The notes below the pieces were generated by a model. It ran no database searches and was not told the DNA's origin. It saw nothing but the letters and a program-made list of their open reading frames with translations. The translations under genes were made by a program, and so were the position numbers. Shown piece by piece: positions 616 through 38,076 of a stretch of DNA of 64,000 bases. The stretch is from Escherichia phage vB_EcoM_3HA11, in the sequence record MN342150. One strand, given 5' to 3'. Each line of letters opens with the position of its first letter. The stretch's first letter is position 1.

Positions 616-628
616 ATTATTCAATAAA

Positions 629-650
629 AGGGGCGTTTGCCCCTTTACTT
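629..650 (+). terminator. rho-independent terminator hairpin (GGGGC-GTTT-GCCCC plus T run)
   Basis: GC stem-loop followed by TTT directly after stop of the first ORF. Confidence 0.5.
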
Positions 651-671
651 CTTCAATAACCCACGTATAAT
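644..671 (+). promoter_or_regulatory. T4-early-like promoter (-35 TTTACT, 16 nt spacer, -10 TATAAT)
   Basis: Hexamers with sigma70-like spacing about 50 nt upstream of the ATG at 720; same architecture recurs at 7448, 13899, 33182. Confidence 0.4.
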
Positions 672-719
672 TCTAAACATAAGCAGTACGACACCAACTT
701 GAAAAGCAGGAACTACATT

Positions 720-995
720 ATGAAAATCATCCTCGACGCATATATCCGTTACGGCAGCAAATGTCTCATGGCCAAGGTTTATAACGGCGAAGAATTAGTA
801 CACGCTCAAACTGCTCCTTCTGAACAATTACGTGAAATTATGGCACGTGATTTCCCTGGCGTTGAAATTGTTGAACCCGCCAACCAAGCCGAAGTTGACA
901 AAGAATGGGAACGCGAATGGAGTCCAGCGGCGCTTACCCAGGCTGAAAAGAATTGGTCTAACCGCGAAAACGCCAACCGTCCTTTCCGTCGTTAA
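720..995 (+). CDS. hypothetical small acidic protein
   Basis: ORF track 699..995 begins at TTG; ATG at 720 is preceded by AGGAA at optimal spacing (AGGAACTACATTATG). Confidence 0.5.
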   Translation: MKIILDAYIRYGSKCLMAKVYNGEELVHAQTAPSEQLREIMARDFPGVEIVEPANQAEVDKEWEREWSPAALTQAEKNWSNRENANRPFRR

Positions 996-1073
996 GACCC
1001 TGGGGCATATAACGCCCCTTTCTTTTCGCTAATTAAGGGAAACCGCACCGATTTTATAATCAGGAGAATTACA

Positions 1074-3508: not shown

Positions 3509-4081
3509 ATGATGAAACCGTTTATCGAATATTTTAAAGAACAAGCCCAGCAGCCGCAAACTCATGGCGGTATACAAGGCAAAAGTGTAACCATCACTAA
3601 ACAAGCCGATGGAACACAATGGTGCTCCGGCGCTACCGTGACCCAGATCACTCCTGACAATCAGGCCGATGTCTATAACCTGGAATTGACTAATGGCAAC
3701 ACCACTAAAGTGAAACTGACGCCGGACCAGGTTCATGCGGTTTCTGTGGGCAAAGATGTTGTTGCCGTTCATGACGGATACGAATTCTTCTTTGGTAAAG
3801 ACGCCAGCAAAGGTCAGGTCACAGAATCCTATGCTCAAGAACTAGCGAATATGGATAAGATGATCGGTAAAGCGCTGGGCGTTGGCAAATCTCGTAAAAG
3901 CGGTCGTACAGAGTTTGAATATTCCGGTATTCCTGGTATTGGAAAACCTGTCGCAATCGACTTCGGCGGCGAAGACGATCCGTATGTGATCGTCACAGTC
4001 GCTGGTAAACAGCATGACATCAGTAAGGGAAAAACCCTAGCTGTGGACATTGCCAAATATATCGGCGTGAAACCTGTCTAA
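3509..4081 (+). CDS. hypothetical protein, weak capsid-targeting-like N-terminus (KPFIEYFKEQA)
   Basis: ORF with SD AGGAG 6 nt upstream; follows a hairpin. Confidence 0.5.
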   Translation: MMKPFIEYFKEQAQQPQTHGGIQGKSVTITKQADGTQWCSGATVTQITPDNQADVYNLELTNGNTTKVKLTPDQVHAVSVGKDVVAVHDGYEFFFGKDASKGQVTESYAQELANMDKMIGKALGVGKSRKSGRTEFEYSGIPGIGKPVAIDFGGEDDPYVIVTVAGKQHDISKGKTLAVDIAKYIGVKPV

Positions 4082-4090
4082 GGAGGTTGT

Positions 4091-4330
4091 ATGAAAGGGT
4101 TCCCGGATTTCCTGAAAGAGGCGAAGGTTGACCATCGCCGCCTTGGACAACAAGGTATGTACGACATCACTGATGTTGGCCGCCCCGAAAAAGGCGAACT
4201 GATCGACTACTATGATCGTAACGGGGACAAACATCAGGGGAAAGTGAAGTCTGTGAACGCACAGAATATCATGACTCTGACAAACACCAGCACTGGTGAA
4301 ACAGTCAAACTGACTCTGATTAAGCCATAA
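4091..4330 (+). CDS. internal head protein-like small protein (N-terminus MKGFPDFLKEAK)
   Basis: SD AAGGAGG; N-terminal 11 residues match the T4 IP capsid-targeting pattern MKTYQEFIAEA. Confidence 0.55.
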   Translation: MKGFPDFLKEAKVDHRRLGQQGMYDITDVGRPEKGELIDYYDRNGDKHQGKVKSVNAQNIMTLTNTSTGETVKLTLIKP

Positions 4331-4360
4331 AAGAAACCCCGCTTCGGCGGGGTTTTTGTT
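4331..4360. terminator. bidirectional rho-independent terminator (ACCCCGC-TTCG-GCGGGGT flanked by A/T runs)
   Basis: Perfect GC stem with UUCG-type loop between convergent genes 4091..4330 (+) and 4359..4964 (-). Confidence 0.6.
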
Positions 4361-4964
4361 ACTTCACGTACATACAGACCTGGACCTTCTTGCCTTTGTC
4401 GTTCTTGACTTCTACTAATTTAGAAGCGCCATTCAGCTTGACGACAGTCCCCTTTTCCTTCCCACCACTTGGCAATTCATATTCAATCTCTTCACCAGGA
4501 GAAGGCATGCCAGCGCTTGGCCCCATAACAGCAGAGATCTTGTAACGTGCCATACCAGGGCGACCACCTTTGAAGGCATACCAGCCACCTTCTTGCATGT
4601 CTTTCCACTGTTTGTTACCGTCAACAACAATGGATGGATTACCGAAACCGGCCTTGATACCCAGCAAGTCAATTGTCTTTCCCGACTTGTTGTATTTTAC
4701 GGCAGTGTCACCATCAAACTTGTCCAGCATCTGAGTACTGGCGAACTGCCCGTCTTTGATACCAGAAGCAGCGATAACGTCCTTGGCGTTTGTCAGGACA
4801 ATCTTGCGCCCGTCTGGGGTTTCGAAAGTCACCTTATCACCAGAAACATCGGCGTGGAGGAACGTACCCGCAACGTCTTCTGTTGATTTACCGATCTTGT
4901 CAGACTTGATATGTGCAGACATCGGCGGCGCGGCTTCGGTCAAAAAGTCTTGAAAAGTTTTCAT
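4359..4964 (-). CDS. internal head protein-like protein (N-terminus MKTFQDFLTEAA)
   Basis: N-terminus nearly identical in pattern to T4 IPI/IPII/IPIII targeting peptide, with an L-x-E site as cleaved by prohead protease. Confidence 0.6.
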   Translation of the reverse strand: MKTFQDFLTEAAPPMSAHIKSDKIGKSTEDVAGTFLHADVSGDKVTFETPDGRKIVLTNAKDVIAASGIKDGQFASTQMLDKFDGDTAVKYNKSGKTIDLLGIKAGFGNPSIVVDGNKQWKDMQEGGWYAFKGGRPGMARYKISAVMGPSAGMPSPGEEIEYELPSGGKEKGTVVKLNGASKLVEVKNDKGKKVQVCMYVK

Positions 4965-5051
4965 TTCGTTCTCCAGTTATATTATTCTATATAGTACCTC
5001 ATAGACCCCATTAACACTAAATACTAGACAGTTCAACAATAGGAAACAATC

Positions 5052-7367: not shown

Positions 7368-7398
7368 CAAAAACCTTCTCTCTAGGCCTCATTCTACG
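7368..7398 (+). terminator. rho-independent terminator (AGGCCTC...GAGGCCT plus TTTT)
   Basis: Inverted repeat with T run after the 7146..7355 gene. Confidence 0.5.
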
Positions 7399-7447
7399 AG
7401 GCCTTTTAAAATACTTCAAAAATAATTTAAAAATTTATTGAAAAAGA

Positions 7448-7476
7448 CTTTACTCTTCAATAATCATGCACTATTA
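7448..7476 (+). promoter_or_regulatory. T4-early-like promoter (-35 TTTACT, 17 nt spacer, -10 TATTAT)
   Basis: Same arrangement as the promoter at 644. Confidence 0.35.
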
Positions 7477-7554
7477 TAGTTCACATAGGGCGGTACACAA
7501 CACCCCGCCGAATGAAAAGTGAAACGACCCAACTACATTATGAGGAATTACATC

Positions 7555-8043
7555 ATGGCTACTACCAAAACTCTGATCACCAACGGCACCATCTCTTTTG
7601 AACTGAACACCGAAGTTGCAAAAGTTGAAATGTTCCGCATCGCGCAGGCAGCTGGCTTCACTGGTGGCAAAACTTCCTTCATGAATCTGCTGAACGGCAA
7701 AGTGAAAGCAACCAACGGTTTCACCCTGGTAGAGCAGGTTGTCGTAGACAAAGCCGTGGTTGCCAAGACTGCTGACAAGGTTGGCATGCTGAAAGGCCTG
7801 GGTCATGATATCCACGTCGTTGAAGCCAACACAGAGACCTACGGCACAATCGTAACAGAAAAAGGCCGTGTGCAACTGAACCCTCTTAACAACGGCACCT
7901 TCTCGGTAATGGTCTTCCCTAAAAAGGGCTATGCCAACGACGACATCGTCAAGGCGGCGGGCGGCGAAGCGAAGTCCCAGTATGTCAAGATGGGCAAGCT
8001 GAGCGCCGACGCAGTAGAAACTCTGGTGAACAAACTGGCTTAA
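7555..8043 (+). CDS. hypothetical protein, probably abundant (strong promoter, optimal RBS, strong terminator)
   Basis: ATG at 7555 preceded by GAGGAATTACATC (same initiation cassette as genes at 720 and 13979). Confidence 0.5.
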   Translation: MATTKTLITNGTISFELNTEVAKVEMFRIAQAAGFTGGKTSFMNLLNGKVKATNGFTLVEQVVVDKAVVAKTADKVGMLKGLGHDIHVVEANTETYGTIVTEKGRVQLNPLNNGTFSVMVFPKKGYANDDIVKAAGGEAKSQYVKMGKLSADAVETLVNKLA

Positions 8044-13872: not shown

Positions 13873-13902
13873 TCTTTCAAAGCCCCTGATCTAGGGGCTT
13901 TA
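13873..13902 (+). terminator. rho-independent terminator (AGCCCCT...AGGGGCT plus TTT)
   Basis: Hairpin after the glutaredoxin gene. Confidence 0.5.
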
Positions 13903-13927
13903 CTTTTGAAACCTTTCCGCCTATACT
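13899..13927 (+). promoter_or_regulatory. T4-early-like promoter (-35 TTTACT, 17 nt spacer, -10 TATACT)
   Basis: Same architecture as 644 and 7448. Confidence 0.35.
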
Positions 13928-13978
13928 TCCCAGTAATTCATTGGCAAACGCCACAAATTGAATAGCAGGAACTATATC

Positions 13979-14212
13979 ATGACCAACTCTGAAATATATC
14001 ATGCTTCTATGCATTATCACGACCTACGCGCCCGTCCAGGACACGCCAAACAAAAAGCATTCTGGGTGGCAGAACTCAGATTACGCCGTGCTGTCGTTAA
14101 CCACCAAATAATCATGAATCGGAAAAACGACAAATCACCGTTGTTGGCAGATTCTTATCTTGAACTCCGCACAGCCTATGAACAAGCCAAACAGCACGTA
14201 ATAGGAGCATAA
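13979..14212 (+). CDS. hypothetical small basic protein
   Basis: ATG preceded by AGGAACTATATC (shared initiation cassette). Confidence 0.45.
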   Translation: MTNSEIYHASMHYHDLRARPGHAKQKAFWVAELRLRRAVVNHQIIMNRKNDKSPLLADSYLELRTAYEQAKQHVIGA

Positions 14213-23248: not shown

Positions 23249-23953
23249 ATGGCCAAGAACGCTATGGGTGAAGAAGACCCGTTGTTGCTTCCTGCCGAGA
23301 TGGACGCCCCAGAATTGGTCAAGCGTTACATCCGCAAATATCGTCAACATTTTGGACCAGAAGCGAAACGTAATATCCGTCGGTCTCACGTGTGGTTTAT
23401 GGAACGCGTATCGAAAGATGCCAATTTATCCCCCAACCACATGATGAAGGCGTTTGCTGAAAATAAACGTCCTGTTCAGGGTGTGCGCTATATTGTTGGT
23501 CGCATGTACTATTTCAAATATGATGCGCTGACCAAAGATGAACTCCCGTATTGGGATATGTATCCTCTTGTATTCTTCTTCAATTTTGTGAAGGGTGACG
23601 GGGTAAAATTTGGGGAACGTGGTGTGACCTATCTTTATGGTCTCAACCTTCATTATTTGCCACCAAAGCTCAGATTATTAGTGTTTGAAGATCTTATCAA
23701 GTTGAGGAACGAAAGAGCGTATCGTTCTAAAACTCGTTTGAGACTTACTTGGGATGCCCTGAAACGGTTCGCCAATCACCCTCTATACAACCATTGTGTG
23801 AAACTGTACCGCGCTGATCAATTTCGTTCACAGCTTTATGAGATTGAGCCTCAATACTGGGAAGTTGTTTTGTTTATGCGCACTGCTCGATTCCAGAAAC
23901 AGAGCCAGATGTCTGTTTGGAAAGACGCTCGTCGTAAACACAAAAATGGTTAG
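23249..23953 (+). CDS. hypothetical protein (late region; possibly head completion or DNA-end associated by position only)
   Basis: SD AAGGAG 8 nt before ATG; divergent from a late-promoter gene, an arrangement seen for T4 genes 4 and 53. Confidence 0.5.
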   Translation: MAKNAMGEEDPLLLPAEMDAPELVKRYIRKYRQHFGPEAKRNIRRSHVWFMERVSKDANLSPNHMMKAFAENKRPVQGVRYIVGRMYYFKYDALTKDELPYWDMYPLVFFFNFVKGDGVKFGERGVTYLYGLNLHYLPPKLRLLVFEDLIKLRNERAYRSKTRLRLTWDALKRFANHPLYNHCVKLYRADQFRSQLYEIEPQYWEVVLFMRTARFQKQSQMSVWKDARRKHKNG

Positions 23954-23954
23954 T

Positions 23955-23995
23955 TCTAAAAGCCGTTCTATGGGATAATTCGCGAACGGCTTTCT
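23955..23995 (+). terminator. terminator-like hairpin (AAAGCCGTTC...GAACGGCTTT)
   Basis: 10-bp inverted repeat followed by T-rich sequence. Confidence 0.45.
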
Positions 23996-24015
23996 ATAAA
24001 CATGAGGTTCCATAT

Positions 24016-24747
24016 ATGTCATATCTACACAGAATTTTTGGTATTGAATTCGGTTCCAACAGCGTTCGTTATGACCGCACTCACAAAGACTCCGGCGGCA
24101 AGACTGGTTACGAACTTGGATCTCGTTTGGGGTATACTGAAGAGCGCCGCCTGAGTGAACAAACTCTTTTCACAGCTATGGGTATTGAATTTGAATCCGA
24201 GGCTGCTTTAGATCTGGGGGATGAGGTTCGTTTTGGTAAGCCTGAAGTCTTAGAATTTGTTGAAGACTTCGTGACAGGTTATACCCATGCCGCTAACAAT
24301 CGTCGCGCCGCCAATGATGCTGTTGGTAAATTTCATTTTGCTGTGAAATACCTTGCCGACAAGCGTATTCAAATGGAAGCCGAATTCAGTGAAGAAAACT
24401 TGAAAGCAGTTTTCGGAGAGACTGGCGATTTCCTATTGACAGAAGAATCCGGCACTTCTTCCGCTCGTCATTTCTTTAGTCAACCGTTTATCGTGAAGGG
24501 ATGTAAAATTCTGATTGATGAAGAACATGTTTTTGGTATTCATCCGGATGTTGTATACGATGAAGAGACGTGTCTGATCATTTCCAGATTGTTTAACAGC
24601 CTGGCGTACACTTCATATTCATTGATCGAACGCTGTATGGAAGAAGAGCATCGCCAAGTTGTTGTCAACAAAATTCGCTTACATGTTGAGCAGAATTTTA
24701 ATGGATTCCATTGCGCGTCTGGTGAGATTCCAAACTTCTACATGTAA
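24016..24747 (+). CDS. hypothetical protein
   Basis: ORF with SD GAGG. Confidence 0.5.
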   Translation: MSYLHRIFGIEFGSNSVRYDRTHKDSGGKTGYELGSRLGYTEERRLSEQTLFTAMGIEFESEAALDLGDEVRFGKPEVLEFVEDFVTGYTHAANNRRAANDAVGKFHFAVKYLADKRIQMEAEFSEENLKAVFGETGDFLLTEESGTSSARHFFSQPFIVKGCKILIDEEHVFGIHPDVVYDEETCLIISRLFNSLAYTSYSLIERCMEEEHRQVVVNKIRLHVEQNFNGFHCASGEIPNFYM

Positions 24748-24764
24748 AGATATCAGGGGGCTGT

Positions 24765-25052
24765 ATGAAGAAATATGTTCGTCTGAACACTGTACTTGAA
24801 TCAGTTATAGAATATTTCATAATGCAGCACCTCAGAGCAGAAAATGATCATGTGAGCGATGCTTTGACTTATGACCACAGGATAGTGGTTCATTCCGTCG
24901 AAATAGTGGATGACGAATTGTTGATTGCCAATGTTGAGCATGCTCTCTGGGATGAAGTGTTAGATCAGTATGTTCAACCGAAGTTCACACAGATCGAGTT
25001 ATCTGCCATGTGGCCACCTGAAACAGTTTTCAATATTGATATACAAAGTTAA
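24765..25052 (+). CDS. hypothetical small protein
   Basis: ORF with SD GGGGG. Confidence 0.4.
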   Translation: MKKYVRLNTVLESVIEYFIMQHLRAENDHVSDALTYDHRIVVHSVEIVDDELLIANVEHALWDEVLDQYVQPKFTQIELSAMWPPETVFNIDIQS

Positions 25053-25129
25053 TATTCACGTCAGTCCGCGCTGTTCCAGCGTTCCGTTGTCTAACACAGA
25101 AGTGTTAACCAACTTTTCAATAAAAAGTG

Positions 25130-25158
25130 GTTTACATCTTCTAAAAAGGCAGTATATT
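25130..25158 (+). promoter_or_regulatory. T4-early-like promoter (-35 GTTTAC, 17 nt spacer, -10 TATATT)
   Basis: GTTTAC is the T4 early -35 consensus; located about 70 nt upstream of the gene at 25226. Confidence 0.4.
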
Positions 25159-25225
25159 AATGTTCCAGACGCACAGTTGAACATTAAACTGCCAAAGAAG
25201 GTTACTACACAAAAGGGTTTTTATT

Positions 25226-26185
25226 ATGTCCTATATTCTTCATATCGAGTCCGGCCTGAAATTTGAAATTGATGGTAAAACCGCTGCTGATCTTCAAGCA
25301 GAAATCAAAGGTGCAGACCTTATCATCGGCAACGTCACGTTACGCCGTATGATGGAAGGCGTCCTCCAGTCAGCCAACGGCTTTGAACTCATTGAAGGTC
25401 TGAGCCAGGAAGAGAAAGAAGAGACTCTCGAAGCTCTTGACCGCGCTGAAGCCGAAAAAGTTAAACCGACCGAAGATGCGGGGGTTAAACAGGGCGACGG
25501 TGAATCAAATCCGGTGATTGACGCTGAAGAAACGGTTGGGCAACCTGCCGGTGATCAAAATTCCCAGACCGTCGAAGACGGTTCTCTTGAAGTCAACAAA
25601 GACGGTTCCATTTCCCTGGTAGTTGAAGGCGAAGAAGTTCTTGACGAAGAAGCGCAAGCCCGTGCTGAAGAAGTTCGCCGTCGTATGCTGGGCACAACCG
25701 TTGCTGAAGCAATCGCCGACGTTGAAAATCCGAAGGATGATCAGGCTTTAGCGAACGCGAAGGCGGTTCTGGCCAAGAAATCTTCTGAAATGCGTCCTGC
25801 GTCTTCTACTGAAGAACGCAAGCGTCGTCATAACAAACGTGAAGAAATGGTTGACGCCGCTCGTGCTTCTAACTATGGTCCAATCCTGGCGGCGGTTGAA
25901 GCAGGGGTTACTCCTGAAGTATATTTGAGTTATGTGAACCCTGATATGCGCTGGTTCCAGTTCCCTGTCACTGAATTGGCAGACGAAGCCAATCCGCATG
26001 CCCGCACCAACACCTATGTTGATCTGGCACCTATCGTTTCCGGCGGCTGGGGTTTCAGTCTGTATGTGAATGGTAAGTCATTCACCAAGCGTCAGAAAAT
26101 CAAAGAAACTGACGCTGAATCTCTGGTAAAGGCTATCAACGAATGGTTGCCTCAGGCGTTGGCCGAAGCGAAAGCTGCTGCGTAA
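25226..26185 (+). CDS. hypothetical acidic protein (319 aa)
   Basis: ORF, Glu/Asp-rich central region. Confidence 0.5.
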   Translation: MSYILHIESGLKFEIDGKTAADLQAEIKGADLIIGNVTLRRMMEGVLQSANGFELIEGLSQEEKEETLEALDRAEAEKVKPTEDAGVKQGDGESNPVIDAEETVGQPAGDQNSQTVEDGSLEVNKDGSISLVVEGEEVLDEEAQARAEEVRRRMLGTTVAEAIADVENPKDDQALANAKAVLAKKSSEMRPASSTEERKRRHNKREEMVDAARASNYGPILAAVEAGVTPEVYLSYVNPDMRWFQFPVTELADEANPHARTNTYVDLAPIVSGGWGFSLYVNGKSFTKRQKIKETDAESLVKAINEWLPQALAEAKAAA

Positions 26186-26257
26186 TTTAACTCAGAAGCA
26201 TTCAATAGATGAAGGGGTTGCTATAATAGCAGCTCCTTTTGTTTATTGGAGCATGTC

Positions 26258-26920
26258 ATGTCTTATTCGCTCAAAGGGCTGTTGAAGCGCCCTGTGCATT
26301 TGTTTGTCAAACCACCTGCTGTAGAAGGGGAATATTCGGCACGAGGAGAGTTGTATTACATTAAAGGCTCCAATGGTAGTGGTAAGTCTACTGTGCCCTC
26401 TTATTTGGCGGAGAATGATCCTCAGGCGTATGTCGTAACCCATAACAGTAAGATCATGCTCACGGTTTGTCCATCTTACAATATTGTCTGTGTCGGTAAA
26501 TATGACAAGTCTAAGTCCAAAGGGGTTGATTCTCTGAAGGATACTGAGCAGATGTTGTTCGCGTTGTCTATTTCTGACCAACCAGAATACCTGAAATATG
26601 ATGTGATTTTCGAAGGCATCATTCCGTCTACATTATTGAGTTCTTGGATCCCCCGCCTGACACGCCCACCACGTGAATTGGTCGTCCTCTTTATGGATAC
26701 CCCTCTTGAAACCTGTATTGCCCGTGTTAAATCGCGTAACGGTGGCGCAGACTTCAATGAAAGTCTGGTGGTCGAGAAGTGGGAGCGCGTTCACAACCAT
26801 CGGGGGCGGCATAAAGAGTTGTTCCCTACCGTGTGTGCGGGTATGATGAAGTCTCACGGTCTAACTGTAGACCAAGCTGTAATGGCGTTCCTCCTCCGTG
26901 ACTTTGGGAGCATTGACTAA
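26258..26920 (+). CDS. P-loop kinase (candidate nucleotide or DNA-base kinase)
   Basis: Walker A GSNGSGKST; first gene of a translationally coupled operon; its stop overlaps the start of the hydroxymethylase gene. Confidence 0.55.
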   Translation: MSYSLKGLLKRPVHLFVKPPAVEGEYSARGELYYIKGSNGSGKSTVPSYLAENDPQAYVVTHNSKIMLTVCPSYNIVCVGKYDKSKSKGVDSLKDTEQMLFALSISDQPEYLKYDVIFEGIIPSTLLSSWIPRLTRPPRELVVLFMDTPLETCIARVKSRNGGADFNESLVVEKWERVHNHRGRHKELFPTVCAGMMKSHGLTVDQAVMAFLLRDFGSID

Positions 26921-27966
26921 TGGAAATTAAAGCTATCAATAACAACGACATGCTGAAACAGGCTGTCTTGGCTATCCGTGAATACGGGATTGAATCTGAT
27001 CCTGGCAACGCGGAGATCAACACTGACGGCACCCGCTTTCTTGATGGTGTGACTATCACCGTCAGTGATATCCGTGACCGCTGGTTATCCGTTGAAGGTC
27101 GCAACTCATCGGCCATCGCAGCTATCGGTGAGACTTTCTGGGTGCTGGCTGGGCGCAATGACCTGAAGTTCCTGTCACGTGTCCTGCCCCGCGCTGCCAA
27201 CTTCTCCGACGATGGCCTAACATGGCGAGCCGCTTATGGGCCGCGCCTGTACGCCCATGGTCAGTTACAGAGCGTCATCAACCGTCTCCGCAAAAACATC
27301 AACACCCGTCAGGCGTATCTCACCATCTATGATCCGTCTCTGGACTCTGATGTTGGTCTGGCCAAGCACAACGGCTCAAACGAAGCGAAGACCAAAGACA
27401 TGGTGTGTAACCTGGCTCTGTTATTTGCTGTCGTTGAAGGTCGTCTGAACCTGACGGTCATCAACCGCTCACAAGATGTCCTGTGGGGTATGAGTTCAAT
27501 CAACTTCATTGAGTTCTCTATCCTTCAGGAAGTGATCGCGCAGGTGCTGGATGTAGACGTCGGCCAGTACAAGCTGTTCTCTAACAATCTTCATTACTAC
27601 AACAATGAAGTCAGCCAGAAGCAGCTGGGTAAGATCACGAAGGACACCAAAGTAGAAGCTGGGTTCATCAACTCCATGATTCACTTCACGAACGTGACCA
27701 ACCAGAACCATATCCGCAATCTGTTCACTGGTGTGCTTCATCACTGTGATATCGGTAGCCCGTGGGAAACTGTGGTCGCCCACCTGAAGGAGTACGATGC
27801 TGATCGCGGCCTGATCGTACAGATGGCATACTGCCTGTACTGCAAGCTGAACGACAAGCTCATCAACATGAACCTGATTCAGGATCATGGCCTGAACATT
27901 GCACTCACTCACTCTCCGGTTGACCGCAAGATCGTTGATCCAAAGTTCCTGGAAGGTGCGTTATGA
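26920..27966 (+). CDS. thymidylate synthase-family pyrimidine hydroxymethylase (gp42-like; base specificity uncertain)
   Basis: Blocks GETFWVLAGRND, DMVCNLA (catalytic Cys without the P-C-H of true TS, as in T4 dCMP hydroxymethylase DFMCTNT), NRSQDVLWG and GQYKLFSNNLHYY; 348 aa. Confidence 0.65.
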   Translation: MEIKAINNNDMLKQAVLAIREYGIESDPGNAEINTDGTRFLDGVTITVSDIRDRWLSVEGRNSSAIAAIGETFWVLAGRNDLKFLSRVLPRAANFSDDGLTWRAAYGPRLYAHGQLQSVINRLRKNINTRQAYLTIYDPSLDSDVGLAKHNGSNEAKTKDMVCNLALLFAVVEGRLNLTVINRSQDVLWGMSSINFIEFSILQEVIAQVLDVDVGQYKLFSNNLHYYNNEVSQKQLGKITKDTKVEAGFINSMIHFTNVTNQNHIRNLFTGVLHHCDIGSPWETVVAHLKEYDADRGLIVQMAYCLYCKLNDKLINMNLIQDHGLNIALTHSPVDRKIVDPKFLEGAL

Positions 27967-28532
27967 TGTATCCAAACCTTGAATTCTTTACGGGGCGTAA
28001 GCGCTCCGGCAAGGACTTCTGTTTGGAGTCCCTGATCAGCTACCACCATCTACAGGGAGACAAGGACATTCAACGCCTGTCTTTCTCGGATGAGCTGCGC
28101 CGTGTTGCCAACTACATCTACCCGTGGCTGCCTGAGGAGGTGGAGGATGCTGTGAAGGACGTTTCATTCATACACCCCGATAACCCCAAGGGCTTAACTC
28201 CACGGCAGATCTGGCTTCATCTCGGCAGCGATACGGGCTTGCGTTACGTACAGCCTGATCTGTTCCTGGCGTTCTTCAAGCGCTTCCAGCTTCCTCTGGT
28301 AGAGCAGAACCCTCACGTCCATTATATCGTGAGCGACCTGCGCACCCCCCAGGAATATGAATGGGCGCTGAGTACGAAATGTCCTATCACCCGCATTTCA
28401 AAGGCCGACCGCGCTGGTATCATAGAGGACGATATAGAGGCTTTCATTGATAAGATGGAAGTTGATTATGAATTTGTCAATCCGTTTGAAGGTTGGCAAC
28501 CGTTCGTCAAATTTTATAGGGATCGGAAATGA
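27963..28532 (+). CDS. 1: deoxynucleoside monophosphate kinase (T4 gp1-like)
   Basis: P-loop GRKRSGKDF matches the T4 gp1 GVKRSGKDT pattern; ATGA overlap with the upstream gene. Confidence 0.65.
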   Translation: MMYPNLEFFTGRKRSGKDFCLESLISYHHLQGDKDIQRLSFSDELRRVANYIYPWLPEEVEDAVKDVSFIHPDNPKGLTPRQIWLHLGSDTGLRYVQPDLFLAFFKRFQLPLVEQNPHVHYIVSDLRTPQEYEWALSTKCPITRISKADRAGIIEDDIEAFIDKMEVDYEFVNPFEGWQPFVKFYRDRK

Positions 28533-29077
28533 TCACAACAGAGCATATTAAAAGTCTGCTCGAACTTCAAAAGGCCACCAACGTGGCCTATTTTGGGGAA
28601 GAGTGGAAGAATGTATGGAGTCAGAACGCGATCATCAACTCCATCTATCGCGAGTGGGCGGAGTTCCTTGACGAAACCACCCGCGACTGGAAGGTCTATG
28701 GTAACGACATCGGGTTTCACCATGCGAACGCAGTCTATGAACTGGTGGACGTGGTTCACTTCATGCTGTGTTTCATCCTCGTCGATCGCACCAAAGGAGA
28801 GATTGAAGAAGAAATGGAGAATCTTGGCCGACGGCTCGTCCCAGGGACGAGTTCAGTAGGGCATCGCAATGTTACGTATCGCCTTGGGCAGTTCATGAAC
28901 GATCCTTGCGTCGAGACTCTCATGGTCTTCCTATCGACTGTGTGTTCTTACATGGAGATCGACATTGAGACCTACATGCTGGCACACAAGCGCAAAAACG
29001 ATCGCAATCGGCTGCGTGCTGCTGGCGGCGCGAATTACGATAAGTCCGCAGAAACCCCTCTGACCCTGGAGTTCTAA
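28529..29077 (+). CDS. 56: dCTPase/dUTPase-type all-alpha NTP pyrophosphatase (T4 gp56-like)
   Basis: ELVDVVHFMLCFIL block matches T4 gp56 ELVDIFHFVLNMFV; 182 aa. Confidence 0.65.
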   Translation: MITTEHIKSLLELQKATNVAYFGEEWKNVWSQNAIINSIYREWAEFLDETTRDWKVYGNDIGFHHANAVYELVDVVHFMLCFILVDRTKGEIEEEMENLGRRLVPGTSSVGHRNVTYRLGQFMNDPCVETLMVFLSTVCSYMEIDIETYMLAHKRKNDRNRLRAAGGANYDKSAETPLTLEF

Positions 29078-29607
29078 TGTTTACAGTTGTCGTATCATAT
29101 TATGCGGAACATGCCCCGCAAATGGCAGAGAACTTTGCTGAGTTTATTAAACCTGGCAGACATGTCGTTATCGCGACCAAATTCAACAAAGAACCAGATG
29201 GTGCGGCTACTGTAACGCAACATATTACAACTCCAGAGCCGGAAACCCTTTTCAAACGTATTGAAGATTTTGCTTTTGGCGGGGAAGAAATTCCAGAGTC
29301 ATTACAGCATATCTATTTTGAAGATGCGATATATTATGTTCATGCTATTCCAAAGGATGTTACAACTGAACAAATGATGTATATCCTGAATATCGCATTG
29401 AATGTTTCTTGTGTCAACAGGGCACAGCACAATCGTCTGCGTAATATGTATTTAACAGAACGCGGGGGTTCCGAAATTAACGATGAAAAACTCCCGTCAA
29501 TAATGGCGATTCACGAAGCAATCAATATATTGTCCAAGAAAGTCTTGGGCACCGATTTATTAATTACGATCAACAAGCAAGAGGAAACGAAATGGCCGAT
29601 TCATTGA
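29077..29607 (+). CDS. hypothetical protein (176 aa) within the nucleotide-modification operon
   Basis: ORF coupled to dCTPase (TAATG overlap) and overlapping the uvsX start. Confidence 0.45.
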   Translation: MFTVVVSYYAEHAPQMAENFAEFIKPGRHVVIATKFNKEPDGAATVTQHITTPEPETLFKRIEDFAFGGEEIPESLQHIYFEDAIYYVHAIPKDVTTEQMMYILNIALNVSCVNRAQHNRLRNMYLTERGGSEINDEKLPSIMAIHEAINILSKKVLGTDLLITINKQEETKWPIH

Positions 29608-30677
29608 TGGCTCGCATGCTCAAGACAGCAAAGAAACTGGACCCGAATGCCGAAGTGCTGTCAAAGACCGATGCGCTGAAGCCTGACATTATTTGCAGTA
29701 CGGGTATTCCTATTCTGAATTTGGCCTGGTCCGGTCGTATTGATGGTGGTCTGATATCAGGCATCAAACAGTTGGTGGGGGATTCTCGTACATTCAAAAC
29801 CATGTTTGGGCTGGTAGATGTTAAGGCTTACATGGATAAGTTTCCTGATGCAATTTGTATCTTCGCGGATTCCGAAGGCGGTGCGAATGAAAACTACTGG
29901 ACATCTATGGGTATTGACATGGACCGTGTCTTGTATCTGCCGATTGAAAACGTTGAAAAGACGAAGATCAAGCTGACACAGCTTCTGAATGATGCTCAGA
30001 AAGGTGACAAGATCATCGTATTCATCGACTCAATCAGCCAGTTGCCGTCTACCAAAGAAGTTGATGATGCTATCGCGGGCAAAGACACACAAGATATGAC
30101 TCGCGCTCGCGCTCTCAATAGTTTTTGGCGTGTTATCACTCCGTTGGTCACTGAAAAGAAATTCGTTTTGGTATGGATCAACTCGTACTATGATGAAATC
30201 GGGAACCAATACGCCGAGCCGAACATCAAAGGCGGTAAACAGGGGTTCCTGTCTTCTAACCAATTGTGGTTCATCACGCGTTCTCAAGTAAAAGAAGACA
30301 AAGACCTTTTGGGATGGCAGTTTACAGTCAACATCATGAAAGGTCGCTTTGTCCGTGAAAAATCCAAGTTCCCTGTCACTGTGTTGTATGAAGGCGGTAT
30401 TGACCGTTGGTCCGGTATGTTAGAAATTGCGCGCATGCTGGGGTATGTGGATTTGGTGAGTGGTTCTTGGTATCAACGTACTGCCAAAGGCGGGTTTGAT
30501 CCAGAAAAAGAAAAGAAATATCGTAAGGCAGAGCTGGGGGATGACTTCTGGTATCCGTTGCTGGAAAACCCAGACTTTGTTGACGATGTGAACAACATGT
30601 TCGGTATCTCTCAGAGTTCGGTTATGCCTGCAGATATGCTGGAGCGCCTCGATAATGTCATCAAAACAACCGAGTAA
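29592..30677 (+). CDS. uvsX: recombinase UvsX (RecA family)
   Basis: PDAICIFADSE, IVFIDSISQL, DMTRARALNSFWRVITP and REKSKF blocks match T4 UvsX. Confidence 0.9.
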   Translation: MADSLMARMLKTAKKLDPNAEVLSKTDALKPDIICSTGIPILNLAWSGRIDGGLISGIKQLVGDSRTFKTMFGLVDVKAYMDKFPDAICIFADSEGGANENYWTSMGIDMDRVLYLPIENVEKTKIKLTQLLNDAQKGDKIIVFIDSISQLPSTKEVDDAIAGKDTQDMTRARALNSFWRVITPLVTEKKFVLVWINSYYDEIGNQYAEPNIKGGKQGFLSSNQLWFITRSQVKEDKDLLGWQFTVNIMKGRFVREKSKFPVTVLYEGGIDRWSGMLEIARMLGYVDLVSGSWYQRTAKGGFDPEKEKKYRKAELGDDFWYPLLENPDFVDDVNNMFGISQSSVMPADMLERLDNVIKTTE

Positions 30678-32415: not shown

Positions 32416-32478
32416 CTTCAATAATGGTGGTCATAGGGTATAATCTCTATGATCTGAATATTAACCCAGGAGCACATC

Positions 32479-33136: not shown

Positions 33137-33172
33137 TCCCCCAGAAAGCCCAACAAATTGTTGGGCTTTTTA
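33137..33172 (+). terminator. rho-independent terminator (AAGCCCAACAA-ATT-GTTGGGCTT plus TTTT)
   Basis: 11-bp stem with T run. Confidence 0.6.
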
Positions 33173-33181
33173 TTTGAAACC

Positions 33182-33210
33182 TTTACTTCAATAAAACATA
33201 CGGCTATCAT
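33182..33210 (+). promoter_or_regulatory. T4-early-like promoter (-35 TTTACT, 17 nt spacer, -10 TATCAT)
   Basis: Same architecture as 644, 7448 and 13899. Confidence 0.35.
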
Positions 33211-33253
33211 TTAACCTACTTTGAAAAGTTTCACTATATCATGAGAGGCAGAT

Positions 33254-34447
33254 ATGAAAGCCAAGACCTTCAGTATTCCTATCGACAACATTGGTCGTGT
33301 CAAGGAACGTCTGGCCAAACTTGAAAGAACGGCCAAGCGCCTGAATCTCGAGTTCCCTCTTGTCGAATACAGCGAACCATACAAAACCCAGCATCGCGAT
33401 TCTATCACTGGTGAAAAATTCTATCGGTGGTGGCAGGATTGTACACTCACTGGTGAAGGCATCGACCGCCCCGTTTCCTACGGCGGGTGGAGCATTATTG
33501 GACAATTCAATCACCAATATCCAAAAGTCATCTTGAATAAATTAGCAGATGACATCCACCCTAATTTCATTCAAAGATTCGAAGCCGAAAACGTGTCTTG
33601 GTGTGAGCATTGTAATAAATCTGTGCGTCGTCATAACACATATGTTGTTCGTAACGAACAATCCGGCGCTCAAATGTTGGTCGGCAGTAGCTGTATGCAC
33701 CATTACGTTCCTCATCAGAAATCGCTTGATGCCGTGATGTCTTATTATATGTCGATACATGAAATGTTCTCACCTGATGAAGATGACCCTGAAGGCATCT
33801 ATCGAGTGAACGAACCTGATTACGTTGACACTGAAGGTTATTTGCGGAATTGCTTTCAGGTTCTGCTGTCTGGTATGAGTATGAAGAGCGATGATTTTGG
33901 TCGAGTTCTTGGTCATATTTCTAGCGGGACTCGTCCGGAGAAAGGTTCTGACATTGAGATATTCTATAACAAGGCTGTTAAAGCCCGTGAAGATGCTCAA
34001 TCAGAAATGTACCATATGATGCTTTTCATCGCCGCGTTGTCTGAGAACAATGATTTCAACGTTCGCCTGAAACGTATGTGTGAACCTGGATATCACCTCG
34101 TTAAGGACTCCACGACAGTTCGTTGGGGAGCAGCAAAGTATTATGATTATATCCACACCCCCCGCCAAATGCGTTCTGTATCAAATTGGGTGGGGGAAGT
34201 CGGTGAAATGTTAGAAGTGCAAGTCAAATTCGAAGCAAGGATTTTCCTGCATTCATCTGATTATGGTGACACGTATCTGTATACTTTCAAAACCAAAGAA
34301 GGCAATACCATTACATGGAAGACTTCTTATATGGAAACCGAATTCCTGGAAGGTGATATGATCATTCGTGGTCGCGTCAAAGAATTGACCGAATTCAAAG
34401 ATGTTAAACAAACTCAGGTAACAAGGGCAAAACTGAGGAAATTATGA
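33254..34447 (+). CDS. hypothetical protein (397 aa) with Cys/His cluster (CEHC...CMHH)
   Basis: Long ORF, SD GAGAGG; putative zinc site around residues 115-150. Confidence 0.55.
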   Translation: MKAKTFSIPIDNIGRVKERLAKLERTAKRLNLEFPLVEYSEPYKTQHRDSITGEKFYRWWQDCTLTGEGIDRPVSYGGWSIIGQFNHQYPKVILNKLADDIHPNFIQRFEAENVSWCEHCNKSVRRHNTYVVRNEQSGAQMLVGSSCMHHYVPHQKSLDAVMSYYMSIHEMFSPDEDDPEGIYRVNEPDYVDTEGYLRNCFQVLLSGMSMKSDDFGRVLGHISSGTRPEKGSDIEIFYNKAVKAREDAQSEMYHMMLFIAALSENNDFNVRLKRMCEPGYHLVKDSTTVRWGAAKYYDYIHTPRQMRSVSNWVGEVGEMLEVQVKFEARIFLHSSDYGDTYLYTFKTKEGNTITWKTSYMETEFLEGDMIIRGRVKELTEFKDVKQTQVTRAKLRKL

Positions 34448-34770: not shown

Positions 34771-35112
34771 ATGACCACACTCGTAGAAACATTATTCCCA
34801 GGATGCACCCTTGGGCGCGGTGGTAGCGAAGCCAACGGGCTGGCAATTGACGCCGAACCCCAGAACTGCGTTGTTATCGACAAATTCCATGACAATCATT
34901 ATGCTCTGAATGATCGTCGCGATCATTATTTGGTTTCTGTGGGAGAATCTTTGGTTCACCTTCGAATCTGTTCTGCTTTACCAGGATATGGGTATGACGC
35001 ATTTGCTTATATCCATGATGTTTCCAACGGCGCGTTGGGGAAAGAATCCCTGATTGAAAAATTCAAGAGTTGGAAGGAGTCCTTCACCTCTGTCACACCA
35101 CCTAAGAAATAA
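34771..35112 (+). CDS. hypothetical protein
   Basis: ORF. Confidence 0.45.
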   Translation: MTTLVETLFPGCTLGRGGSEANGLAIDAEPQNCVVIDKFHDNHYALNDRRDHYLVSVGESLVHLRICSALPGYGYDAFAYIHDVSNGALGKESLIEKFKSWKESFTSVTPPKK

Positions 35113-35127
35113 TTGAGGAATATATTA

Positions 35128-35736
35128 ATGTCACTGAAAACATTTTTAAACCGCCTGTTCAGCACTGTCGAGGCCAATTTAACTGCAGGTTTGGATAAAC
35201 TCACAGATACCGAGAAGCGTTTGAATCTGGCTGCACGGAAACTATCTGATGAAATCCGGCGTTTAGAAGAAGCCCGTGTAACCAATGTCCACCATGGCGT
35301 TAAGATGAAGAAGACCGCTGATGAAAATCTGGCTGAAGCCATCAAGCGAGAAACCATTTTGAAAGATGCGATCGCTCGTGGAGTAACTCCTACCCGCGCC
35401 GAAGCTTTAATCATACTCCACCGCCGTCGTATTGGTGAAGCCTTGCTGGATAAAGTCAAAGAGATCGAATCTGGCAGCGTGAAATTGAATTCGGCGATTG
35501 TTGAATTGGGTGACAAACTGGACGCTGTTAAGTCTAATCTCGAATTGGTCCGAATTCAGAAAGAATCGAATGATCTTGGGTTAACTTTACCGGAAGACAT
35601 CGATTACGCGGCTGGAATGATTAATGTCGATGTTGATGCTATCCTTCGGGAAGCTGAAATCGCAGATTCCAATTATTCTACCAATAGCCCTTCAGCAACA
35701 GAAGCGGACAATTATCTGGCAAATTTATCAAAATAA
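35128..35736 (+). CDS. PspA/IM30-like coiled-coil protein (putative)
   Basis: N-terminal amphipathic helix MSLKTFLNRLFSTVEANL followed by long heptad-like helices, reminiscent of PspA/Vipp1; ATG at 35128 with SD GAGGAA. Confidence 0.4.
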   Translation: MSLKTFLNRLFSTVEANLTAGLDKLTDTEKRLNLAARKLSDEIRRLEEARVTNVHHGVKMKKTADENLAEAIKRETILKDAIARGVTPTRAEALIILHRRRIGEALLDKVKEIESGSVKLNSAIVELGDKLDAVKSNLELVRIQKESNDLGLTLPEDIDYAAGMINVDVDAILREAEIADSNYSTNSPSATEADNYLANLSK

Positions 35737-35773
35737 TATAGAAGGGGCATGTGCCCCTTCATTTGGGGGATTT

Positions 35774-36346
35774 ATGGTCATTATTGACTCAACAGATATT
35801 TTGATTGCTGTTCTTAGTATGGTTGGGGTCTGTATTCTCGTTATGGGAATCAAAAAATCTTTGGGAAAACAAGTTGTTGAGGCCGTCTCCTCAGATTTAC
35901 AACCAGAAAATACCACGAAAAATGTTAAAGACATAAAACTTATTCTGAGTAGCCGTGTGTCCAAAAGTTTGGTTCCGAGCATAGATGATTTCAACTTACA
36001 CTACAAAGACCCAGACACTACTCCTGAAGAATATTTTCAATATTTCATGAAAGGTTTGGGTTGGCCGTTCATAGAATCGTGTGTATCAAAATCAAATTGT
36101 TTCTATTTGAAAATAGCATGTAAAGGTGAATATCAGGCTGTATGGTTTTGGAATTACGACGACACTTACGATAAACAATTTTTGATATATCTTCACAGGT
36201 TGTTTAAAGAGTATATGAACAACGGCAATGTCCCTGTTCACAAGGTAGAAACTGTAGAATCTATCGTGGATCGTGCTCGAACTCGTAATGGAACGAAACC
36301 AGATTATCTTTCCAAGTATGGATTTGTTTGGAAGGAGGACATATGA
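35774..36346 (+). CDS. membrane-anchored protein (N-terminal TM helix plus about 165-aa soluble domain)
   Basis: TM segment ILIAVLSMVGVCILVMGI right after the ATG at 35774 (SD GGGGGA). Confidence 0.45.
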   Translation: MVIIDSTDILIAVLSMVGVCILVMGIKKSLGKQVVEAVSSDLQPENTTKNVKDIKLILSSRVSKSLVPSIDDFNLHYKDPDTTPEEYFQYFMKGLGWPFIESCVSKSNCFYLKIACKGEYQAVWFWNYDDTYDKQFLIYLHRLFKEYMNNGNVPVHKVETVESIVDRARTRNGTKPDYLSKYGFVWKEDI

Positions 36347-36510
36347 AAGACATTTCATTTTATATTTGGTCTGCAATATTATTTTTCGGGATCTTGATTA
36401 TTCTTTTTCAACCGTTTTGGGCCGAATGGATCAATAATAGAAGAATGCGCAAATATGGAGTGGATGTTCTTCAGATTGTAGATAAGGCTAGAAAAAGACG
36501 CAGCAAATAA
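36343..36510 (+). CDS. small single-TM protein (55 aa)
   Basis: SD GGAGGA; hydrophobic IWSAILFFGILIILF; ATGA overlap with the upstream gene. Confidence 0.4.
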   Translation: MKDISFYIWSAILFFGILIILFQPFWAEWINNRRMRKYGVDVLQIVDKARKRRSK

Positions 36511-37992: not shown

Positions 37993-38020
37993 CACGATTG
38001 AATTAAGGGGGGTATAACCC
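37993..38020 (+). terminator. rho-independent terminator (GGGGGGT-ATAA-CCCCCC plus TTT)
   Basis: Hairpin after ligase. Confidence 0.5.
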
Positions 38021-38076
38021 CCTTTCAATAAATCTATGGCAGTATAATTCCAACAAATCATCACAACGGTATTGTT

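Follow-up and report, generated by a model that had tools for sequence, protein, structure and literature searches.

Copies of a dispersed hairpin–promoter–leader unit in a Vi01-like phage probably form a PeSL-type cassette for early expression and gene swapping

The window analysed here, 64,000 nucleotides of Escherichia phage vB_EcoM_3HA11 (record MN342150), carries four plus-strand sites at which a stable hairpin, a TTTACT / 16–17 nt / TATAAT-like promoter, and the 12-mer ACTAYATYATGA occur together (Table 1). The whole unit of ~100 nt, from the hairpin to the ATG, is a dispersed repeat. The copies probably represent a regulatory cassette of the same kind as the PeSL (promoter-early stem-loop) of T4-like phages, mediating early expression and gene swaps. 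As judged from sequence, this kind of cassette, already known from T4-like phages, is newly seen in the Ackermannviridae. The window phage is a Vi01-like Kuttervirus of that family. Its closest reference is Salmonella phage SJ2, with ~98% identity in a comparison of the first 20 kb of the window, and 278 phage records, mainly from Salmonella, Klebsiella, Escherichia, and Dickeya hosts, match the same 20 kb. As the reference for counts in upstream regions and at start sites, we use the rebuilt complete genome of SJ2 with its 197 annotated genes.

Table 1 Features of the cassette copies in the window
Feature	Coordinates	Strand	Remarks
Site 1, AT-rich palindrome TTATTCAATAA, upstream of the hairpin	617..627		
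Site 1, terminator-like hairpin (AAAGGGGC GTTT GCCCCTTT)	627..646	+	-13.6 kcal/mol; T tail overlaps the -35 hexamer
Site 1, putative early-type promoter	644..671	+	TTTACT (644-649), 16 nt, TATAAT (666-671); 10/12 consensus matches
Site 1, leader, 48 nt from the -10 hexamer to the ATG	672..719	+	Predicted unstructured, folding z = +0.57
Site 1, 12-mer ACTACATTATGA, overlapping the start codon	712..723	+	Left junction of gene replacements
Site 1, variable-slot gene, 91 aa	720..995	+	PHROG 5704, no assigned function
Site 1, downstream terminator hairpin (putative)	1002..1018	+	Right junction of the slot; SJ2 homology resumes in 3' arm
Site 2, terminator-like hairpin	7384..7404	+	-12.1 kcal/mol; followed by a 44-nt AT-rich stretch
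Site 2, putative promoter	7449..7477	+	TTTACT, 17 nt, TATTAT; cassette profile match 7427-7561, E = 1.6e-4
Site 2, hairpin within the leader (GGGCGG...CCGCC)	7488..7509	+	Kept across genera, with stem and loop variants
Site 2, 12-mer copy, not the start codon	7532..7543	+	Forms, as first unit, a 15-nt tandem duplication with 7546-7560
Site 2, initiation region AGGAATTACATCATG	7543..7557	+	Start of the 162-aa gene 7555-8043 (PHROG 3764)
Site 3, terminator-like hairpin	13879..13901	+	-14.7 kcal/mol
Site 3, putative promoter	13899..13927	+	TTTACT, 17 nt, TATACT; hexamers invariant in 19 distinct sequences
Site 3, initiation block TTGAATAGCAGGAACTATATCATGA	13958..13982	+	ATG 13979 starts the 77-aa gene 13979-14212 (PHROG 5206)
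Weak fifth cassette copy (TTCAATAA ... GTTTACATCTTCTAAAAAGGCAGTATATT)	25111..25201	+	Profile E = 0.04, marginal
Site 4, terminator-like hairpin	33146..33168	+	-14.0 kcal/mol
Site 4, putative promoter	33182..33210	+	TTTACT, 17 nt, TATCAT; TTCAATAA in the spacer
Site 4, TTGAAA and 12-mer ACTATATCATGA	33221..33244	+	5' of the real RBS and ATG 33254; not the start codon

A sequence-only reading had claimed that three unrelated small genes, starting at 720, 7555, and 13979, each follow a hairpin, a TTTACT promoter, and a nearly identical RBS-to-ATG segment, and that a similar promoter precedes the gene at 33254. All of these elements lie where that reading placed them, and the three genes indeed belong to different PHROGs. 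The 12-mer belongs to the shared initiation region at 712 and 13971. At 7532 and 33233, however, it immediately precedes the real RBS and ATG; site 2 therefore carries two copies, and site 4 a leader motif in addition to the promoter. Nor is the similarity confined to the RBS–ATG segment, as had been supposed. It extends over the whole span from the -35 hexamer to the ATG, which is of constant length, and an alignment of four copies has a mean column identity of 69%.

The motif search proposed with that reading finds four exact copies of the ACTAYATYATGA core in the window (712, 7532, 13971, and 33233), compared with 0.05 expected. AGGAAYTAYATYATG occurs exactly three times (708-722, 7543-7557, and 13967-13981), always on the plus strand and always ending in an annotated start codon, and its expected count in dinucleotide-preserving shuffles is 0.00. 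A chance origin is rejected by the motif shuffles and by a column-shuffle test on the 197 SJ2 start sites.

A hairpin (-12.1 to -14.7 kcal/mol) with a T run behind it stands before each of the four promoters. Three of the TTTACT-type sites are listed by a generic promoter scan, and all four are found by pattern search. The region 5' of the -35 hexamer is AT-rich, with TTATTCAATAA at site 1, a 44-nt A/T stretch at 7405-7448 at site 2, and a weaker stretch at site 3. Inside the promoter spacer of site 1, TTCTTCAATAA (649-659) forms a second near-copy of the palindrome. The word TTCAATAA is half of an 11-bp palindrome, TTATTSAATAA, which occurs nine times in the window with at most one mismatch, compared with 2.2 expected. 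The leader of site 1 contains TTGAAA (699-704) and the RBS AGGA (708-711). Leader length is 48-51 nt in four paralogous copies, and the same distance separates the -10 hexamer from the ATG in SJ2 ORFs 32, 49, 136, and 177. The leaders fold no better than shuffles (z -0.6 to +1.0) and Rfam gives no match in the window, which rejects a conserved RNA structure or known RNA family. No dyad-symmetric DNA operator is visible inside the initiation block.

A profile made from the sequences of the four aligned copies recovers site 2 and weaker copies, all on the plus strand. The window holds four clear copies and a weak one, and SJ2 holds 8-9, with the same promoter type in front of ORFs 7, 12, 32, 40, 49, 71, 136, and 177. 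The 84-nt promoter and leader segment is found at 763 places in 276 phage records, with 2-4 BLAST-detectable copies per genome, and the host-genus breakdown of these records is about the same as that of the 278 records matching the first 20 kb of the window. Thus the combination of terminator, T4-early-type promoter, initiation region, and unrelated small genes that had been read from the letters holds across the phage family. The promoter hexamers of sites 2, 3, and 4 are invariant across genera, and the site 1 promoter is kept in 15 of the 15 genomes compared.

Gene swaps can be followed at site 1, where the window carries the 91-aa gene and SJ2 an unrelated 122-aa gene. The two phages are identical up to AGGAACTA; homology breaks off inside AGGAACTA/YATYATG and is found again from the 3' arm of the next terminator onward. 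In the 15 genomes, one cassette stands before six BLAST-unrelated proteins of 91-125 aa from five PHROG families; the replacements of the PHROG 5704 gene belong to PHROGs 13016, 9866, 31745, and 6516. The 122-aa gene is found behind three different leader variants in these genomes, a mosaic pattern. In one clade, the -10 hexamer and early leader of site 1 share 21 identical nt with the cassette of another locus, that of SJ2 ORF177. The stem of the site 1 hairpin is constant in the relatives and its loop varies (GTTT, AAAA, GAAA, or TTTT).

The window and SJ2 differ by 11 indels. A cassette junction is found in one of them (site 1) and the others lie at ordinary gene boundaries, so a blanket association between indels and the motif is rejected. 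The SJ2 record lacks a 6.8-kb block of the window (23470-30291), which looks like a thymidine hypermodification cluster together with uvsX; its genes are for a 5-hmdU DNA kinase (PF18748, E = 1.6e-111), a thymidylate-synthase-like enzyme, a dUTPase, a phage ACT-like domain protein, and a UvsX/RecA homologue. Because SJ2 DNA homology picks up again inside uvsX, the gap is a deletion or an assembly gap. The window also has an extra 722-nt segment at 4330-5049, with a 201-aa ORF on the minus strand, and an extra 1.4-kb segment at 35095-36506, with a 240-aa ORF; neither ORF has a Pfam match.

Site 3 shows gain and loss of whole genes. Eleven genomes have the 77-aa gene; in the 10 that lack it, the ATG of the cassette directly adjoins the next gene. 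In L039, an extra 121-aa gene is bracketed by two tandem cassettes, and L035 carries a degraded, promoter-less half-cassette with a 67-aa gene. In L037 (~3870-4500), a gene for a 203-aa HNH homing-endonuclease-like protein is inserted at the -35 hexamer, directly after TTTACTTT, which is repeated at the far end of the insert. When 19 distinct versions of site 3 are compared, hardly any change is seen in the two hexamers and in A-TTGAA-AGCRGGWACTAYAYCATG, whereas divergence affects the promoter spacer, the coding sequence, and the early leader, which also has a 12-nt indel. The hairpin stem changes in a compensatory manner among relatives (T-A to C-G, G.T to C-G), and pairing is kept. A second near-copy of the motif, AATATATCATG, lies out of frame at 13993-14003, 14 nt inside the 77-aa gene.

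These features closely resemble those of PeSLs. By definition, a PeSL has a sigma-70-like early promoter with a stem-loop immediately before it, an AT-rich region, and an RBS and start codon at the 3' end (PMC4122927). The PeSLs of RB49/phi1, T4/PST, and KVP40/nt-1 (PMC2839356, PMC4122927) have the same order of parts as the units described here, and likewise occur as several dispersed copies per genome. In particular, the promoter consensus of the T4/PST pair, TTTACW-N17-TAYWAT (PMC4122927), is nearly the same as ours. PeSLs adjoin variable small genes and have been proposed to mediate their exchange, including by excised mini-circles (PMC4122927). In accordance, the copies in our phages adjoin small variable genes, and two arrangements known from PeSLs recur, a gene flanked by tandem copies (L039) and a degraded half-copy (L035); the arrangement in L039 would be the substrate required for mini-circle excision. 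Hairpin, promoter, AT-rich region, RBS and ATG, multiple copies, and adjacency to indels are thus all present at the sequence level. The differences are that the host phage family is the Ackermannviridae and not the T4-like phages, that the leader length is fixed at 48-51 nt from the -10 hexamer to the ATG, that the end block TTGAAA-N3-AGGAACTAYATYATGA is much stricter than the RBS and ATG of a PeSL, that the 12-mer also occurs detached from a start codon, and that the left recombination junction lies at the ATG and not at the promoter or stem-loop. The promoters also share the TTTAC-type -35 hexamer (not TTGACA), the AT-rich upstream region, and the strong -10 hexamer of T4 early promoters, as the account of Liebig and Ruger (1989) is relayed in PMC3184105, and have in addition a conserved TTCAATAA in or upstream of the spacer.

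Each copy of the proposed cassette consists of an AT-rich stretch, a GC-rich hairpin, a promoter, a ~42-nt unstructured leader, and the fixed initiation block, in this order. The hairpin would terminate the upstream transcript, and host sigma-70 would read the T4-early-type promoter (TTTACT, 16-17 nt, TATAMT, often with TTCAATAA in the spacer), so that the cassette may insulate the downstream gene and drive its strong expression early in infection. Because the copies are alike, they could act as patches of homology through which small accessory genes would be swapped, inserted, and lost, with the ATG and 12-mer as the left junction and the hairpin as the right one. If so, the near-identity of the RBS–ATG segments is mainly inherited with the cassette, and its uniformity would be maintained by recombination and by selection for a good early-gene start site. 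Anatomy, copy number, conservation, and the junctions of the gene swaps are shown by the sequences, and from these we infer promoter and terminator activity, expression timing, and recombination as the cause of the swaps. Our search of the Ackermannviridae and Kuttervirus literature for PeSLs, transcription start sites, and transcriptomes found nothing relevant, and the promoters and terminators are accordingly judged by consensus and conservation.

The initiation block could instead be an optimal ribosome-binding context that was reached independently in each gene under selection for translation efficiency and has no regulatory or recombinational meaning. In agreement with this, the leaders are unstructured, and the 197 SJ2 starts as a whole have a similarly shaped but weak consensus (GGA at -11 to -9, T at -6, A at -5, A at -3, T at -2, C at -1, and A at +4). 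However, 17 of the 197 genes match ACTAYATY at at least seven of the eight spacer positions, compared with 3.2 expected with independent columns, indicating a distinct class and not the tail of one distribution. The motif is found in five of the eight SJ2 genes behind a TTTACT-type promoter, compared with 12 of the 189 others (Fisher p = 1.3e-4), but in none of the 33 late structural genes (17 of the 164 other genes have it), although these comprise the most highly expressed late genes, including that of the major capsid protein. In addition, the promoter and the 5' part of the leader are included in the similarity, and the 12-mer is conserved even away from a start codon. We therefore regard independent optimisation as improbable, and favour inheritance of the block with the cassette.

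Most members of the class have TTGAAA at 20-23 nt before the motif's ATG. The distance from TTGAAA (GTGAAA at site 2) to (T/C)AT(C/T)AT is 10-12 nt at sites 1-4 and at SJ2 ORFs 9, 136, 137, 177, and 184, and the arrangement TTGAAA, 10-12 nt, TATCAT/CATTAT could in principle be a second promoter with the geometry of a T4 middle promoter (a box at about -30 and a -10 hexamer) that overlaps the start codon. Such a promoter would let later transcripts skip the small early gene. Its transcript, however, would start after the ATG, and at sites 2 and 4 would have a leader of only 4-6 nt without an RBS. The invariant GA after the putative -10 hexamer is left unexplained, and a MotA or AsiA homologue has not been reported in the Vi01-like group, a phage of which lacks homologues of Alt, ModA, MotA, and AsiA (PMC3184105). 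Moreover, for six of the eight occurrences of the bipartite pattern in SJ2, an annotated start follows at 1 nt or at 14-16 nt, indicating that the motif is tied to translation starts. We consider a second promoter very improbable, and keep to the reading of the block as the initiation end of the cassette.

Several words are over-represented upstream of SJ2 genes. TTCAATAA (18 observed, 1.3 expected) likely lies in or near the early promoter, GTATAAT (9 observed, 0.7 expected) is likely the -10 hexamer, CTATATC (10 observed, 1.0 expected) is likely the leader motif, and CTAAATA (16 observed, 0.7 expected) likely belongs to a late-type promoter. The 12-mer itself is rejected as a late promoter, since the late-type word CTAAATA(C/T) is distinct from CTATATC, and the latter is fixed at -8. 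The late-promoter-like (C/T)TAAATA(C/T) precedes structural genes by 19-42 nt, except for one outlier at 78 nt (window 3481, 5017, 8320, 10093, and 19441, plus strand; SJ2 ORFs 147-171), and is often followed by a leader hairpin (ACCCC...GGGGTAT) that has the RBS within its 3' arm. The late promoter of the Vi01-like group was not identified in the 2011 CBA120 paper (PMC3184105). A second promoter-like arrangement, TTCAATAA, 11-14 nt, TATAAT/TATTAT, is found at window 32417-32445 and 38000-38050 and at SJ2 ORFs 15, 118, 124, and 132; in several of the SJ2 copies, a GC-rich hairpin carries the -10-like hexamer in its loop, e.g., GGGGGA-TATAAT-TCCCCC.

Like most of the indel junctions, the downstream genes of sites 2 and 4 speak against the cassette reading, since they are conserved and not variable. 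At these sites the 12-mer is kept at a distance from the start codon. The leader of site 2, with its detached copy in the form CAACTACATWATGAGGA, is kept in clades with 77-84% primase identity. At site 4, a clade with 67% identity of the downstream protein still has CTAnATYATGAG, whereas the neighbouring bases differ. Depending on site and clade, the detached ATG opens an in-frame extension, a 27-codon overlapping ORF, MRI-stop, or MR-stop; at site 2 in the clade with 84% primase identity, its ORF has three codons only. A conserved upstream ORF at these two sites is therefore rejected; neither its frame nor its length is conserved, and it lacks an RBS. Common descent alone does not explain the upkeep of the detached 12-mers. 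The distance from the site 2 promoter to the end of the primase gene is 115 nt in two genomes and ~300 nt in others. The 15-nt tandem duplication AACTACATTATGAGG / AATTACATCATGGCT at window 7531-7560, which places a second start-region motif before the real one, looks like a scar of recombination or slippage.

The detached copies bear on the suggestion of the sequence-only reading that the reused leader reflects a shared translational control or an operator for an RNA-binding regulator such as RegA. In this case, the 12-mer ACUAYAUYAUGA, together with UUGAAA ~9 nt upstream, would be an RNA operator at which a RegA-type or other RNA-binding protein shuts off early accessory genes by occluding the ribosome-binding region. 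UUGAAA-N9-ACUAYAUYAUGA would then be a dedicated operator, Ackermannviridae-wide, for a divergent RegA homologue or another phage RNA-binding protein. On this account, a protein bound to the 12-mer would reach over the adjacent RBS even where the 12-mer is not the start codon, which would explain its upkeep there. In accordance, the 12-mer is conserved 5' of the RBS at sites 2 and 4 and upstream of gp45, in none of which it is a start codon. It is A+U-rich, unstructured, and located at the AUG or just 5' of the RBS, and the operators of T4 RegA have been described alike (PMC3014915); site 1 of the window carries ACAUUAUGAAA, to be compared with the T4 gene 44 operator AAAUUAUGAUU (PMC3014915). 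The operators of T4 and RB69 are also short and located on early mRNAs, but lack a strict consensus (PMC3014915), in contrast to the near-exact 12-mer. The absence of the motif from late structural genes agrees with such an operator as well.

A RegA homologue is also encoded in close relatives of our phage. SJ2 ORF191 is a full-length member of the RegA family (PF01818, E = 6e-35, positions 1-121 of 122; T4 RegA 1REG, E = 5e-27), and directly follows the gp45/44/62 homologues, as regA does in T4. Its RNA-binding residues T18, R21, and W81 are kept, and K14 and F106 are changed to G and H, respectively, which could give a different specificity. ORF191 lies at 146458-146922 of the SJ2 record (L008 10658-11122), outside the window, and has a 23-residue N-terminal extension.

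Against a RegA operator, the 12-mer is missing from the homologues of the classic T4 targets, regA itself included. These homologues match one to five of the eight spacer positions (gp44 two, gp62 five, regA two, and dexA one), the rIIA, rIIB, and uvsY homologues match six, and gp45 has only the detached upstream copy. The RegA regulon (44, 45, 62, regA, rIIA, rIIB, and dexA) need not be conserved between families. In addition, the regA homologue is encoded outside the window, the breakpoints of the site 1 gene replacements fall exactly within the motif, and a repeated cassette would lead one to expect the pattern just as well. Motif reuse has a simpler account in the common descent and recombination of that cassette. 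The suggestion of a RegA operator thus gains from the homologue in the closest relative and from the A+U-rich, unstructured site, and loses by the classic targets; given the lack of the motif in gp44, gp62, dexA, and regA homologues, we rate it as unlikely. If true, UUGAAA-N9-ACUAYAUYAUGA would define a post-transcriptional shut-off regulon of early accessory genes, and for the question of RegA-type recognition, the nearly exact 12-mer would be a cleaner candidate operator than any in T4.

Our preferred reading, a PeSL-type cassette, bears on how early genes are expressed and exchanged in this family. Early promoters could not be recognised in the Vi01-like genome paper (PMC3184105), another paper on a Vi01-like genome lists eight sigma-70-like sites only (PMC3121705), and the LIMEstone paper lists predicted T4-like promoters but does not describe the cassette. 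The cassette would provide a family-wide consensus for early promoters and leaders, testable by transcript mapping. It also marks slots that exchange small early genes of no assigned function. Slots of this kind are the usual home of host-takeover and anti-defence genes, and the motif may therefore serve as a cheap locator of such genes in the 276 sequenced relatives. Modular shuffling of the PeSL type would thereby extend from the T4-like phages to a second, distantly related family of myoviruses.
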